From: a virus
Lineage: Duplodnaviria > Caudoviricetes
DNA: 64,000 nucleotides
Strand: one strand, 5' to 3'
Virus record (IMG/VR): IMGVR_UViG_3300025154_001556
Positions 6,877-21,155 of the stretch are shown here, one piece after another. The notes under the pieces were generated by a model. It saw only the letters and a list, made by a program, of their open reading frames with translations. It was not told where the DNA came from and did no database searches. Made by a program: the position numbers and the translations under genes. Positions within the stretch are counted from its first letter, which is position 1. Every line of letters begins with the position of its first letter.

Positions 6877-7536
6877 CTATTTAATTTTTCGTCCTCTAAC
6901 CCAACCCAAATTTTCCAACGTATTAAGTTCTTCTTTGTTTATGGACCTACTTTCATGAGTGTAAGGGCAGTAAATCCACACGGTACCATAGCGAGAATTA
7001 AGTTGTCCTGCTTGCTTTATTGAGTTTTTTCTACCAATTATATTCTTAGTTTCTTGTGTATGCTTTTTACCGTAAAAAGCGTTTTTAGTCCCTTTATGCT
7101 TACCGGTATGGGATTTACTAATTTTATCTTTATACTTTTCCCATCTGCCAGAAGCTATTAAAAGTGTCTTTAATTTATTACCACACACTAAATTTTCTTG
7201 CCCATAACCTTTTTGGCCATTTTTCCCATATAAATTTAATTTGAATTCATTTATGGTAGCTATATTTTTATAGCCGCCCTCAATTAAATTATATGTAAAT
7301 GGGTGTTTAACAAAGTCTTTGTTTACTAAGATTTCTTCAAGCTCCGACATGTCCTCGTGATTATCAAATACGGCCAGGATGTCTTTTTTAAAATTTTGTA
7401 TACCGTATTTTCGTTGAGCGGCTATAAGATGCCGCCCTGAACCCATATATGTGTCATCAACATGCGCAGTTCTATGGCAACCTATATAAATTTTATTATT
7501 AATGATGTTTGTTATTTTATATACAACATAAAACAT
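6877..7536 (-). CDS. free-standing GIY-YIG homing endonuclease with NUMOD3-like repeats
   Basis: VYKITNIINNKIYIGCH...YMGSG and HTQETKNII. Real start is probably MFYVVY at 7536, since the track start overlaps a tRNA. Confidence 0.88.
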   Translation of the reverse strand: MFYVVYKITNIINNKIYIGCHRTAHVDDTYMGSGRHLIAAQRKYGIQNFKKDILAVFDNHEDMSELEEILVNKDFVKHPFTYNLIEGGYKNIATINEFKLNLYGKNGQKGYGQENLVCGNKLKTLLIASGRWEKYKDKISKSHTGKHKGTKNAFYGKKHTQETKNIIGRKNSIKQAGQLNSRYGTVWIYCPYTHESRSINKEELNTLENLGWVRGRKIK

Positions 7537-7595
7537 ATAATAATTCCTGACACTTAAATAAAAAATTATTGTATTTGTATAAACATAATAATAAG

Positions 7596-7681
7596 TGGAG
7601 CCTAGAGAGGGATTCGAACCCCCGATGTGTTTTACCACGACAGCTTACAAAACTGCTGCTATACCCCTTAGCGATCTAGGC
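7596..7681 (-). tRNA. tRNA-Thr(UGU) with an atypical long variable arm; CCA encoded
   Basis: GCCTAGA/TCTAGGC acceptor, U73, CCA; anticodon arm GCAGT TTTGTAA GCTGT; 16-nt extra arm CGTGGTAAAACACATC; T-arm GGGGG TTCGAAT CCCTC. Confidence 0.8.
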
Positions 7682-8924: not shown

Positions 8925-9176
8925 TTAGTACTCTACTGTGTAACTTTCAACAAATAATATTGATCTAACTGGTATTAACATTTTACCTACTTCTATAAAA
9001 GTGTTATCATTATTATGGTCAGCTATTACTTCTAATGGGTCACAATTTTGATTCCTGGATCTGCCCGAATCACGTGAAATAGACAAATAAGTACATGTAG
9101 TGCCTAGTAAATCTACTTCTAAACCATTAAGTAAAACCAATTTATAAGCATACATTCCATAGCTCCTTATTATCAA
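8925..9176 (-). CDS. hypothetical protein
   Basis: ORF track. Confidence 0.5.
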   Translation of the reverse strand: MIIRSYGMYAYKLVLLNGLEVDLLGTTCTYLSISRDSGRSRNQNCDPLEVIADHNNDNTFIEVGKMLIPVRSILFVESYTVEY

Positions 9177-9385
9177 ACTTTAATTAGATCTGGCTCTTTT
9201 AAACCCCAACATTCTAATTCGAACTCGTATAAATAGCCTATCACTTCTTCTGACTCGTTAGGATGTTCTAATTTAATTTCTTCTAATGTTTTAGGGCGAT
9301 ATTCTCCAGGCTTATCACCGTAAGTTTGTTTCATTAATGCTTCATCTCGTTCTTCACATAAACGCATAAACCAGTTTTTAAGCAT
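9173..9385 (-). CDS. hypothetical protein
   Basis: ORF track; SD AAGGAG. Confidence 0.6.
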   Translation of the reverse strand: MLKNWFMRLCEERDEALMKQTYGDKPGEYRPKTLEEIKLEHPNESEEVIGYLYEFELECWGLKEPDLIKV

Positions 9386-9405
9386 CTTGTCTCCTTTAAA
9401 GCGTC

Positions 9406-9490
9406 CCCTCTTCCAAAGTCTATCGAAGTCACTCGATGTTGCTCTGATGACTAGTCAGAACCGGGATGTTTATCCCGCTAAGGAAGAGGG
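9406..9490 (-). ncRNA. tRNA-like four-way-junction RNA (85 nt) of unknown function
   Basis: CCCTCTTCC/GGAAGAGGG closing stem plus hairpins CGGGAT-AAAC-ATCCCG, TCTGA-CTAGTCA-TCAGA and ATCGA-GTGACT-TCGAT. Confidence 0.55.
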
Positions 9491-9496
9491 TTGTTG

Positions 9497-9578
9497 TGGA
9501 GAGTGATGGAGTCGAACCACCCGAGCTTCCGCATCTGATTTACAGTCAGACCCGCTGCCATCTACGGTATAACTCTCC
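9497..9578 (-). tRNA. tRNA-Tyr(GUA); no CCA
   Basis: GGAGAGT/ACTCTCC acceptor; TCTGA CTGTAAA TCAGA; long variable arm; TTCGAC. Confidence 0.92.
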
Positions 9579-9610
9579 CTTTTATGCTTAGTATTATAGC
9601 ATAAAATTAT

Positions 9611-9898
9611 TTAACTGTCAATAGCTTCTTCTAATATTAAAGTTTCTAATAATGGAGGCAGTTGATTAAAAGAATTTAAAACTACCTCCCCAGTAGCTAC
9701 ATTTTTTGTTTCTATATACGTAGAATACGTAGTACCTCTATTAGAGCCCGCGTGTTTAATTGGGACAGAAAATGTTATTTTATCTCCAATTTTCAGATCT
9801 TTAAATAAACGGGCCTTAGTTTTACGTAGAATTTTTGCTACTACTAATATGTTGCTTTTTAATAGTATATCATTCATTTTATACTCCTTAATAAACAT
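9611..9898 (-). CDS. hypothetical protein
   Basis: ORF track; start may be MNDILL. Confidence 0.55.
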   Translation of the reverse strand: MFIKEYKMNDILLKSNILVVAKILRKTKARLFKDLKIGDKITFSVPIKHAGSNRGTTYSTYIETKNVATGEVVLNSFNQLPPLLETLILEEAIDS

Positions 9899-10462: not shown

Positions 10463-11098
10463 TTAATACCTCATCCACTGTTTTTTCTTTTTTGTACAAT
10501 CTTTCCAACAAGTAGAATGAAAGTCACTTCTATATGTATCATCCCACGAATTAGCTAAATTCATTAAATTCCTACAAGCACGTACATAGGGAGCATGTCC
10601 ACAACTTAAACGCCGTTCTTGTGTTGTTTTAGGGCGTCTATAATAGTGGCTAAAATGCCATTTTCTTTTGCCTGTATAAGGGACAGGCCCATTACGGAAA
10701 CCTAACCACTCATACTCTTTAAACCTGTTACGTTTAGTATACTTTTTAGGCACGTAGTTGTCAAGATCTTTTTCTATTTGTTCTGTATTTATTACTCTAA
10801 AATTAGCATCCAGAAGTAGGAAATCAACGGTGCTTCTTATATCTTTACCTATCCAACTTCCTGTCTTTATAGGCTCAAAATAAATATAAGTGTCATTCCA
10901 GTTGTTGCCAATATTTTGTGATAACTCCTTAGCAATACTTTTTGGGCGAAAATATTCACGTAATGTTTTTCTGTTAGGATCACGCCATTGGCGTTTGCGG
11001 TATCTAGCTAATAAAAAGTCTGTGTAAGATTTGAACTCCTCATAGTTGTTATCCCTATCAACCAAATAAACTCTTTCATCTTTATTAATTGTGTGCAT
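10463..11098 (-). CDS. hypothetical phage protein (RRPKTTQERR...NSWDD...CWKD)
   Basis: ORF track; its SD is sequestered in a hairpin. Confidence 0.7.
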   Translation of the reverse strand: MHTINKDERVYLVDRDNNYEEFKSYTDFLLARYRKRQWRDPNRKTLREYFRPKSIAKELSQNIGNNWNDTYIYFEPIKTGSWIGKDIRSTVDFLLLDANFRVINTEQIEKDLDNYVPKKYTKRNRFKEYEWLGFRNGPVPYTGKRKWHFSHYYRRPKTTQERRLSCGHAPYVRACRNLMNLANSWDDTYRSDFHSTCWKDCTKKKKQWMRY

Positions 11099-11106
11099 TT
11101 AGATTC

Positions 11107-11137
11107 TCCTTTAAGTTAAATTAATAAACTTAAAGGA
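11107..11137 (-). promoter_or_regulatory. 11-bp hairpin covering the SD of ORF 10463..11098
   Basis: TCCTTTAAGTT-N9-AACTTAAAGGA(G). Confidence 0.65.
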
Positions 11138-11208
11138 TATCTTGTACGTAATAATATAATATTTTATATTTCATAATGTTAATTTATTTCCAGTGTAAAA
11201 TATTAGAT

Positions 11209-11302
<94 letters not shown>

Positions 11303-13423: not shown

Positions 13424-14194
13424 TTATACTACTTCTAATGTAGCTGGTGCTGCCCCTTCAAAAATAACTTCTTCTTTATTAGAAAGTTTTGATAATGGGG
13501 GAATAAGATATTCAGCTACAATGTGGCGATTTACAAATATATCATTTAACCTTGTAGCCTTTTTAATCAGCTGTCTTTTAACATAAGTACCACGTTTAAA
13601 GTGTGTAGGGTAATCGTTCCAATTTACACCTTTTCTCATAAGCATGTCTAACATCTCTTCCCTATTTTTAGAGTGCAGTTCTTTGTGTGCATAATGGAAT
13701 CTTGCTGCCATAGAGACACTGTTTTTAATTGCATCTAATTCACGCCATACAAGTGTGTTGACTGCCTCCATTTTAGTAGGAACCACCCAAGCACGACAAT
13801 CAAATAGACCAGCATCTTCACCTTTTTCAGGAATAACTTCTTTAAGATAAGAAGAAAACATAACTGATGCCGCTGAAGCCAATACAGAAACAATCTTCTG
13901 TATTTTTCCATCAAAATAAACTTGTTTATTATAACTATCGCTATATAAAATAAGGCTTATTTCATCACTTTGGGTGTAACCTATTATTGCGTTTGACATT
14001 GAAACTAACGCCCCAGTGACATTTATCATTAAATGACTTAAACGTTCATCATAAGGCCTTTTAAGGCCTTTTGTAAGTGTACTAAAACATTTACCATCCA
14101 ATCTTACACATATAGGTAGTAAAGGAGTAAATTGTCTGCCTGACTCATAACGCTCTAACAATTTCATCCTGTCACCCAGCGCATCTTTATTCAT
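13424..14194 (-). CDS. tRNA(His) guanylyltransferase Thg1-like protein
   Basis: RLDGKCFS, GYTQSDEISL, FDCR and FKRGT motifs. Confidence 0.9.
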   Translation of the reverse strand: MNKDALGDRMKLLERYESGRQFTPLLPICVRLDGKCFSTLTKGLKRPYDERLSHLMINVTGALVSMSNAIIGYTQSDEISLILYSDSYNKQVYFDGKIQKIVSVLASAASVMFSSYLKEVIPEKGEDAGLFDCRAWVVPTKMEAVNTLVWRELDAIKNSVSMAARFHYAHKELHSKNREEMLDMLMRKGVNWNDYPTHFKRGTYVKRQLIKKATRLNDIFVNRHIVAEYLIPPLSKLSNKEEVIFEGAAPATLEVV

Positions 14195-14228
14195 AGTTTC
14201 CTCCTAACAAATGCTTAATAAAAAAAAA

Positions 14229-14308
14229 CGGCAGAGAAAAGTGATTAAACTGTTTTTGAGTTCTGATTAATGGTCAGAATGAAGTAAGTGTAATCTGCAC
14301 TACTACCG
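14229..14308 (-). ncRNA. structured RNA or terminator-like element downstream of tRNA-Glu
   Basis: CGGTAG...CTGCCG closing stem, internal TTCTGA-CCATTAA-TCAGAA hairpin, followed by a T-run. Confidence 0.35.
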
Positions 14309-14312
14309 TTTG

Positions 14313-20390: not shown

Positions 20391-21155
20391 TTAGTTTAAA
20401 TGCGCTTGTAGCACAGACATAACCAGCTTTTCCACTTTAATATAATCGGGTTTTACTGGTAGTTTACTATGCTTAAAACTACATTCTATCTTTTTAAATA
20501 ACCTTTCAGCCTCAGCTTTTACTTGTATTAAAGACCATTTACCTGTTTTTATTTCAAGAAGTTCTTCAAAATCTTCTCTATGTATATTTAATTCACCAGA
20601 ATTAAGGTATTCATCACCCATCCTAAGTAATCTTATACAGTGGCTGGCATTTTTTGGGTCAAATCCATACTTATTAACTAACTCTTTTCTTTTGCTACCC
20701 ATATAACCCAATTTAATATTACTTTCCATATGTTTAAGTTGACCATAAGCATAGCCAACAAAAGAGTTGTAGGCCTCTTTTGATATAAATAGTTTTTTAT
20801 TATCTATTAATAGTTGTCCAGCAGGTGCTTTATTTAAGTAGTGCTCAGATTTCAACCATAGCATGCCTAATACATTAGGATTAGACTTTAATAGCAAATT
20901 TACAAATTTTCTAAATTCATAAGATACAACATCATATTTATCTTTAAAACATTCTATTGCCCTTTCATGTTTTCTTTCTAACCCTAAACCTATGTAGTAT
21001 TCCTTAGGTGCCATGTATACACCCATAAGATCTATATCGTCAATGGAGTTTGGATCTGTGTTGGGTATATACATTCCGTGGGCGATACTTCCACGATATG
21101 CTTCTATGATGGTGTTATCTGGGAATAATTCTTTACTTAATTCTGGTGTTAACAT
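20391..21155 (-). CDS. nucleotidyltransferase, DNA pol beta superfamily (RlaP/Nuc-transf-like)
   Basis: RGSIAHG, SIDDIDLMGV, NPNVLGMLW and HCIRLL. Confidence 0.85.
   Translation of the reverse strand: MLTPELSKELFPDNTIIEAYRGSIAHGMYIPNTDPNSIDDIDLMGVYMAPKEYYIGLGLERKHERAIECFKDKYDVVSYEFRKFVNLLLKSNPNVLGMLWLKSEHYLNKAPAGQLLIDNKKLFISKEAYNSFVGYAYGQLKHMESNIKLGYMGSKRKELVNKYGFDPKNASHCIRLLRMGDEYLNSGELNIHREDFEELLEIKTGKWSLIQVKAEAERLFKKIECSFKHSKLPVKPDYIKVEKLVMSVLQAHLN

Follow-up and report, generated by a model that had tools for sequence, protein, structure and literature searches.

What is an RNA with the size and outline of a tRNA doing directly behind a tRNA gene if it is not itself a tRNA? The question is raised by positions 9406–9490 of a 64,000-nt stretch of DNA (IMG/VR record IMGVR_UViG_3300025154_001556; Duplodnaviria, Caudoviricetes), hereafter the window, the source of which is a large uncultured groundwater jumbo phage. 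A first-pass annotation had described a cloverleaf RNA at this position and read it either as a tRNA mimic, for example a decoy for host anticodon nucleases or uncharged-tRNA sensors, or as a cis-regulator of the ORF at 9173–9385. Here we follow up the cloverleaf, which we refer to as the element, by computational means.

The element separates tRNA-Tyr from the first ORF of one operon

The features of the locus, all on the minus strand, are the following.

9593–9621: sigma-70-type promoter, TTGACA-17-TATAAT with an extended -10 TG; 12/12 consensus match
9496–9578: tRNA-Tyr(GUA), called by ARAGORN; 33.6 bits with the Rfam tRNA model, 37.2 bits with the tRNA-Sec model
9491–9496: spacer CAACAA, 6 nt from the tRNA-Tyr discriminator to the element; read from the sequence
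9406–9490: the element, an 85-nt four-way-junction RNA, supported by minimum free energy (MFE) folding, a single copy per genome with covariance model R1 and pair-preserving substitutions
9482–9490, pairing with 9406–9414: closing stem, 9 bp (CCCUCUUCC/GGAAGAGGG), with pair changes among three variants
9462–9477: hairpin 1, 6-bp stem CGGGAU/AUCCCG with tetraloop AAAC, inside a 30-nt block invariant in all variants
9441–9461: hairpin 2, 7-bp stem including UCUGA/UCAGA, with 7-nt loop CUAGUCA (window) or UUACAUA (L002 type)
9422–9437: hairpin 3, 6-bp stem AUCGAG/UUCGAU with loop UGAC; register shift in the L002-type variant
9391–9396: Shine-Dalgarno (SD) sequence AAGGAG of p70, read from the sequence; unpaired in the centroid fold
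9173–9385: p70, a 70-aa acidic ORF from the ORF list, the first after the tRNA slot; ATG at 9383–9385

The promoter is predicted to drive tRNA-Tyr, the element and the downstream ORFs. There are no terminator-like sites between 8400 and 10000, and the sequence downstream of the closing stem, GACGCUUUAAAGG, carries no U-tract terminator. Since a perfect promoter lies upstream and no terminator precedes the ORFs, the element is a spacer between tRNA-Tyr and the first ORF within one operon. The tRNA-Tyr gene is irregular: its D arm is weak, CCA is not encoded and the discriminator is the A at 9497. The spacing of 6 nt between tRNA and element reported by the first-pass annotation is correct, and the first three nucleotides of the spacer (CAA) are likewise found behind tRNA-Tyr in relatives. 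The SD sequence noted right after the element is there as well, 9 nt past it, and is followed by the ATG of the ORF at 9173–9385. For the element together with its leader neither SD sequestration nor a riboswitch-like alternative fold is predicted.

Homologs of p70 share 40–100% identity with it in relatives, mostly immediately behind a tRNA, and p70 matches no Pfam or PHROG family. As a side observation, the p70 proteins (homologs P0001–P0015) are strongly acidic, and in four lineages no other ORF stands between p70 and a tRNA transcribed from a consensus promoter; one of the homologs, the 2037-aa protein P0014, holds three p70-like stretches. The neighbouring proteins p70, p83, p141 and p95, considered as possible partners of the element, belong to no informative family.

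The minus-strand RNA folds into a stable four-way junction

Read 5' to 3' on the minus strand, with hairpins in parentheses, the element is CCCUCUUCC-UUAG-(CGGGAU-AAAC-AUCCCG)-(GUUCUGA-CUAGUCA-UCAGAGC)-AAC-(AUCGAG-UGAC-UUCGAU)-AGACUUU-GGAAGAGGG. The 9-bp closing stem and three hairpins seen initially by eye are recovered as the MFE structure at -37.1 kcal/mol (z = -5.55), with none of 200 dinucleotide shuffles equally stable, and the fold is unchanged inside a 241-nt context. Two further pairs, A12-U74 and G13-C73 in element numbering, are added past a tandem U.U internal loop. The stems are more perfect than those of the neighbouring tRNA-Tyr, which reaches z = -1.8 compared with -5.5 for the element.

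The 5-bp stem of the middle hairpin, UCUGA-CUAGUCA-UCAGA, is identical to that of the tRNA-Tyr anticodon arm, as had been noticed, and the full stem extends to 7 bp through G30-C50 and U31.G49. The 7-nt loop ascribed to this hairpin is found in the window type; in the L002 type, one of three sequence variants described below, the loop is able to close to 5 nt. In the third arm of the L002 type an alternative helix, 51–56/71–76, is preferred. Because the third arm shifts register and the middle loop can close in this variant, the modelled folds suggest that the conserved core of the element consists of the closing stem and hairpins 1 and 2.

The plus strand of the element folds nearly as well (z = -5.2), and it is the wobble pairs that tell the strands apart. 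G.U pairs on the minus strand are U31.G49 and G59.U64 in the window type, U5.G81 and U55.G68 in the L002 type, and U6.G80 in the L030 variant. Each of these would be an A-C mismatch on the plus strand. Plus-strand and DNA-level readings, such as a cruciform or a TCTGA-N7-TCAGA operator, were rejected, as wobble pairs and wobble-type substitutions fit the minus-strand RNA only. A kissing interaction between loop 2 (GUCA) and loop 3 (UGAC) was discarded too: the window type shows it, the L002 type does not.

The element is neither a tRNA nor a member of a known RNA family

ARAGORN calls seven tRNAs in the window and none at the element. Its bacterial mode is negative on the element, and the permissive metazoan-mitochondrial mode calls the L002 variant only, not the window variant. 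Manual inspection in the 7/5, 8/4 and 9/3 registers found no T arm with a T-loop (UUCRANY) stacked on the acceptor stem: the third hairpin is capped by the 4-nt loop UGAC, 7 nt separate it from the closing stem, and the string UUCGAU is present but paired, forming the 3' strand of hairpin 3. There is no D-loop GG, the loop of hairpin 1 being AAAC. The 'anticodon' is inconsistent between close variants (AGU in loop CUAGUCA, ACA in loop UUACAUA), and the tRNA-equivalent position 37 is C or U, a pyrimidine and not a purine. The missing T arm in any register, the inconsistent 'anticodon' and the negative detectors rule out an unusual real tRNA. The first-pass description of a tRNA-sized cloverleaf that is not a tRNA, lacking both the T-loop and the D-loop GG, thus withstands the ARAGORN, Rfam, T-arm and D-loop tests.

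The proposed Rfam/Infernal check returned no known family. No Rfam family matches the element at gathering thresholds, and on the 96-nt stretch alone there is no tRNA-clan match to E ≤ 10. Across Rfam 15, including riboswitches, ribozymes, Y RNA/YrlA, RtT and tmRNA, the best scores are 9–18 bits compared with thresholds of 40–75 bits. These sub-threshold matches are to unrelated eukaryotic families, snoRNAs, lncRNAs and twister fragments; being spurious and far under threshold, they rule out a known RNA family at both gathering and E ≤ 10 cut-offs. An intrinsic terminator, that is, a GC-rich hairpin followed by a U tract, is not present at the element either.

What, then, does the element resemble? 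With tRNAs (RF00005) and phage pseudo-tRNAs it shares its size, a four-helix cloverleaf and a 7-nt middle loop with U in second position, and like phage tRNAs it sits inside a phage tRNA array, directly behind tRNA-Tyr. Unlike tRNAs, it has no T arm, T-loop or D-loop GG, its closing stem is 9 bp long and a 7-nt gap separates that stem from the third arm. Spacer RNAs of tRNA operons are known from E. coli, namely RtT RNA downstream of tyrT (RF00391) and the 3'ETS of leuZ, both of them functional or stable RNAs made from transcribed sequence immediately 3' of a tRNA. RtT, like the element, lies behind a tRNA-Tyr, but the fold of the element differs from those of RtT and the 3'ETS, translated ORFs follow it and it has no Rfam match.

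A structural parallel is offered by the allo-tRNAs, which are tRNA-Sec-like molecules with 8/4 or 9/3 acceptor branches (Mukai et al., PMC5389517), some of which have been proposed to be non-translating regulatory RNAs (PMC5389517). They share with the element a 9-bp acceptor-like stem, a long D-type stem capped by a tetraloop, an anticodon-type stem of more than 5 bp, a hairpin in the position of the variable arm, a G after the closing stem and diverse 'anticodons', and, like it, they occur in soil or sediment metagenomes and in phages (PMC5389517). Hairpins 1 and 3, each with a 6-bp stem and a 4-nt loop, indeed provide the long D stem with tetraloop and the long variable arm, features that are insufficient to define the allo-tRNA family. 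Allo-tRNAs have a 3–4-bp T stem with a T-loop and a 12-bp acceptor branch; the element has no T arm in any register and hence, without a T stem, no 12–13-bp acceptor branch (8/4, 9/3 or 9/4). The tRNA-Sec model RF01852 finds nothing at the element and matches only the neighbouring tRNA-Tyr.

Plant mitochondrial t-elements are tRNA-like structures that mark mRNA ends for RNase P and RNase Z (Forner et al. 2007, PMC1920247). Like the element they are non-canonical tRNA-like cloverleaves in mRNA precursors, near mRNA 5' or 3' ends, but they are organellar, have mapped mRNA ends and are identified by the T-arm motif GGTTCRANYCC, which is absent from 9406–9490; the element is of phage origin and known from its sequence. 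Phage T4 makes RNAC and RNAD, two small non-tRNA RNAs from its tRNA region with no known role (PMC3014915, PMC9697503). They too are non-tRNA RNAs within a phage tRNA transcription unit; they are discrete small RNAs, and the element bears no similarity to any GenBank phage record. The sequence and fold of the element are undescribed; what is known in outline is its kind, that is, non-tRNA RNAs inside tRNA transcription units.

The element is confined to one sub-lineage and occupies a tRNA slot

Among 50,697 GenBank phage records there is no near match to the window, and blastn with the element alone finds none at E ≤ 1. The closest relative of the window phage is G001, a 234-kb IMG/VR contig. 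Identical copies are present on many ENA, JGI and Logan contigs, several of them labelled groundwater metagenome; Logan and ENA assemblies account for most copies of the phage, and the PRJNA268031 series is one set of groundwater samples that carry it. The element is known in just three sequence variants, all within one sub-lineage of groundwater jumbo phages: the window type (window, L023–L028, L044 and L045), the L030 element, which is 2 positions off the window type, and the L002/L018 type (G001, L018–L021 and L034–L043).

Covariance model R1, applied to every fetched locus and to five contigs of related phages, finds one element per genome. A MITE-like repeat is not indicated: there is one copy in the window and one in G001, and no flanking direct repeat is visible. 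Wider searches used exact and degenerate DNA patterns in which either the stems were left free with loops and junctions fixed, or the reverse; these patterns yielded no other members in IMG/VR, JGI metagenomes or GTDB genomes. Five chance 16-mer matches were dismissed, since they fold unlike the element.

What stands upstream of p70 varies among relatives. In L022 and L031, with p70 about 87% identical, tRNA-Tyr is followed by an SD sequence within ~13 nt and the element is absent. In L016 and L029 (p70 69%) the slot holds tRNA-Tyr, Phe, Lys and Asp, in L053 (65%) tRNA-Asn, and in L052 (49%) no tRNA at all. From this variation we conclude that the element is an occupant of a slot where tRNA genes come and go, and, as the SD of L022 and L031 sits just behind tRNA-Tyr with no structured spacer between, that the element is dispensable in that setting. 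The tree of p70, a short protein, has no well-supported branch bearing on whether the element was gained or lost.

The tRNA-Tyr(GUA) gene itself is exchanged at this site. Two unrelated genes swap (window 9496–9578, L002 3322–3409, L018 138–220, L022 64–151), one being the irregular gene with the weak D arm (33.6 bits, with a better score on the tRNA-Sec model) and the other a canonical class II gene. In L018 the window-type tRNA-Tyr is accompanied by the L002-type element, and L002 has the canonical class II tRNA-Tyr. As the swap is independent of the type of element, it suggests cassette-like recombination.

Two other features of tRNA regions deserve mention. In L053, a more distant phage, an 89-nt tRNA-Asn(GUU) with an unusually long extra arm (1390–1478) lies directly upstream of the p70 homolog. 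In the window, the ORF at 6877–7638 (minus strand) carries NUMOD3 and SegE-like GIY-YIG signatures and either overlaps tRNA-Thr or lies directly next to it; like SegB of the T4 tRNA cluster (PMC2330249), it may be a free-standing homing endonuclease residing among tRNA genes.

Substitutions preserve the pairs

Thirteen of the 85 positions distinguish the window type from the L002 type. This 85% identity equals that of four-fold degenerate sites in five flanking genes (145 of 171 identical, 85%), and the element as a whole is therefore not conserved above the neutral level. The distribution of the changes is less even. Seven of the 13 differences fall in stems, and 27 of 28 pairs are kept with one broken; simulating 13 random substitutions, we obtain a probability of 0.001–0.013, depending on transition bias, of breaking at most one pair. 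Two pairs are altered on both sides between the two types. Pair 6-80 passes from U-A (window) through U-G (L030) to C-G (L002), and pair 54-69 is A-U or G-C. Wobble changes are seen at pair 5-81 (C-G or U-G) and pair 55-68 (U-A or U-G), and pair 58-65 is the one broken in the L002 type.

Positions 7–36, a 30-nt block towards the 5' end that spans the junction UUAG, hairpin 1 and its AAAC loop, are invariant where ~4.5 changes are expected (P about 0.002–0.008, post hoc). In the middle loop 4 of 7 bases differ between the window and L002 types (P = 0.009, post hoc). The covariation check proposed at the outset gives a divided answer: the substitutions keep the pairs, but a formal shuffle test on the three available sequences is not significant, with 115 of 500 shuffles reaching the observed score. 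Taken together, the sequence comparison supports selection on the fold and a pattern of change that is not neutral.

A hairpin shared with tRNA-Tyr recurs behind tRNA-Glu

Four matches to TCTGA-N7-TCAGA are present in the window, compared with 0.02 expected: in the anticodon arm of tRNA-Tyr, in the element, in the spacer behind tRNA-Glu (14222–14311) and inside one long ORF. Aligned to 12 tRNAs, the element has its best local alignment with the adjacent tRNA-Tyr (score 21–23; 14–44 of 5000 shuffles). The similarity covers the anticodon arm only, with p between 0.003 and 0.07 according to the scoring scheme, and 3' of hairpin 2 it is not significant for the window type. It is plausible, as judged from this alignment, that the element descended partly from tRNA-Tyr anticodon-arm sequence. 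An origin from the tRNA-Phe, Lys or Asp of the L016 slot was rejected for want of similarity.

The tRNA-Glu(UUC) spacer is a second structured spacer immediately behind a tRNA (window 14222–14311, minus strand; L046 ~1480–1610; L016 1168–1245). It has a 9–11-bp closing stem around ~65 nt, then a U9 run and then the SD sequence of the next ORF, and its closing and inner stems covary across the window, G001 and L016. Its cap in the window and in G001 is UUCUGA-CYAUUAA-UCAGAA, with the stem found in the tRNA-Tyr anticodon arm and in hairpin 2; the spacer of the more distant L016 has a different cap hairpin. G001 thus has the UCUGA-N7-UCAGA hairpin at both spacer sites, yet the anticodon stem of its own tRNA-Tyr differs. 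Elsewhere in the window, the spacer between tRNA-Ser(GCU) and the ORF at 10463–11098 (11099–11209, minus strand; z-score -3.2) has at its end an 11-bp hairpin in which part of the SD region (AAAGG) is paired.

Near the tRNA genes are also found a Thg1-family protein (tRNA-His guanylyltransferase/3'-5' polymerase; 13424–14194, minus strand; PF04446, E = 4.7e-28) and an RlaP 'RNA repair pathway' nucleotidyltransferase (20391–21155, minus strand; PF10127, E = 3e-18). We rejected the idea that the recurring hairpin is tied to the Thg1-like gene, as G001 and L016 have no Thg1 homolog behind the tRNA-Glu spacer. The window further encodes an amber-suppressor tRNA(CUA) at 1236–1306. Its G001 counterpart (L051 ~1500–1600) keeps the acceptor stem and the CUA loop, has lost 12 nt from the T-arm region and escapes detection by ARAGORN; by its sequence it appears to be a truncated or T-arm-less copy.

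What the element may do

Our best explanation, to which we assign a probability of about 40% on the grounds of position and fold, is that the element is a spacer RNA specific to this lineage, tRNA-shaped but non-decoding, through which the 5' end of the p70 mRNA is processed, insulated or stabilised. A strong early promoter would give one precursor with tRNA-Tyr, the element and p70, from which RNase P and a 3' nuclease would excise tRNA-Tyr. The cloverleaf, 6 nt past the cut, would then become the tightly paired 5' end of the p70 mRNA, where it could shield the monophosphorylated end from 5'-end-dependent decay and would space the ribosome-binding site ~100 nt from the tRNA-processing site. 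The T arm is the feature that RNase Z and the S-domain of RNase P normally use; that the element lacks a T arm and holds its third arm 7 nt from the closing stem counts against processing by tRNA enzymes in this scheme. Alternatively, the same tRNA-processing enzymes might cut the element out as a stable by-product, as for plant mitochondrial t-elements (PMC1920247). A passive role in cis, be it processing, insulation or 5'-end protection, seems to us the most economical reading, but stabilisation by itself leaves the invariant 30-nt block, the hypervariable middle loop and the second UCUGA-N7-UCAGA hairpin behind tRNA-Glu unaccounted for.

A rival reading is a decoy. If the UCUGA-N7-UCAGA hairpin of the element and the tRNA-Glu spacer mimicked a tRNA arm, it could titrate a tRNA nuclease, modification or repair enzyme. 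The same 5-bp stem with a 7-nt loop in tRNA-Tyr and both spacers, far above chance expectation, would fit, as would its presence at both sites in G001, the differing L016 cap, implying that the hairpin was acquired there in the window lineage, a middle loop that changes faster than neutral (4 of 7 bases, P = 0.009) and the Thg1-like and RlaP genes nearby as RNA-repair-type functions; phage tRNAs are known to counter tRNA-cleaving defences (PMC10264068, PMC11464382, PMC11555353). We nevertheless think a decoy unlikely, and the proposal of the first-pass annotation finds no support in its particulars: no loop keeps the Tyr anticodon or any common sequence past Y-Y-A...A (CUAGUCA and UUACAUA compared with CUGUAAA in tRNA-Tyr), the L002-type loop can close to 5 nt, the tRNA-Tyr of G001 has a different anticodon stem, close sister phages do without the element and no partner is apparent. 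Local duplication or gene conversion may be enough to account for the shared stem. Another reading, which we hold to be quite improbable, is that the element is a functionless relic, a decaying tRNA-gene duplicate, possibly of tRNA-Tyr, that folds by inheritance and is heading for loss. Overall identity at the neutral level, the very narrow distribution with absence in sisters, a slot with tRNA gain and loss, the adjacent tRNA-Tyr as the best match (score 21–23, 14–44 of 5000 shuffles) and another decaying tRNA in the same phage group, the G001 tRNA(CUA) counterpart with its 12-nt deletion, are all consistent with decay. The pairing kept by substitutions (P = 0.001–0.013) is not, and stems more perfect than those of tRNA-Tyr (z -5.5 versus -1.8) are the opposite of it; the similarity to tRNA-Tyr is limited to the anticodon arm, slips to p about 0.06–0.07 under other scoring and is not significant in the 3' part.

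Regulation in cis, by a ligand or protein acting on a riboswitch-like structure or translational operator of the p70 operon, would account for an element 9 nt upstream of the SD, for the invariant block (UUAG, hairpin 1, AAAC) and for the conserved tandem U.U internal loop. The position claimed for a cis-regulator of the ORF at 9173–9385 is real, since the element is in the 5' leader on the transcribed strand, but a switch-like mode finds no support: the SD is unpaired in the centroid fold, and no terminator, anti-terminator or SD-sequestering alternative pairing is predicted. Moreover, p70 homologs in four other lineages lack the element, no Rfam family matches and acidic p70 is an unlikely RNA binder, so that we regard such regulation as very unlikely. 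We are just as sceptical of a trans-acting sRNA freed from the tRNA precursor, comparable to the leuZ 3'ETS or T4 RNAC and RNAD, with the variable middle loop as seed. A tRNA 3' processing site flanks the element, the structure is stable and closed with a single exposed, fast-changing 7-nt loop, and RNAC and RNAD do arise from the T4 tRNA region (PMC3014915, PMC9697503); against this, there is no 3' end signal or terminator behind the element, a 7-mer seed is not assignable to a target by sequence alone and the GUCA/UGAC complementarity of loops 2 and 3 is not kept in the L002 type. A long shot, finally, is that the cloverleaf is a working RNA, tRNA-shaped and non-decoding, with the fast-changing middle loop serving as its programmable recognition site in an arms race centred on tRNAs. 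In one version the loop would display a codon or act as a decoy, so that the element could detect or sequester a tRNA or an enzyme acting on tRNAs. In the window phage the amber-suppressor tRNA(CUA) is intact and the loop of the element contains UAG, G001 has the truncated suppressor copy and the Tyr codon UAC in the loop, and the twin hairpin on the tRNA-Glu spacer lies just upstream of the phage Thg1-like gene.

Implications

The reach of the element is limited, as it is seen in one narrow lineage of uncultured phages only. Within that lineage it is a clean study case, with one copy, one promoter, natural relatives without the element and a fold that appears to be selected. Phage tRNA arrays are now regarded as a front line against host defences that cleave tRNAs, and the non-tRNA RNAs they contain have received almost no study. 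The element could be used to test whether tRNA-shaped spacers set or protect phage mRNA ends or bind tRNA-acting factors; the programmable-loop reading, if true, would make it a new class of phage regulatory or counter-defence RNA.
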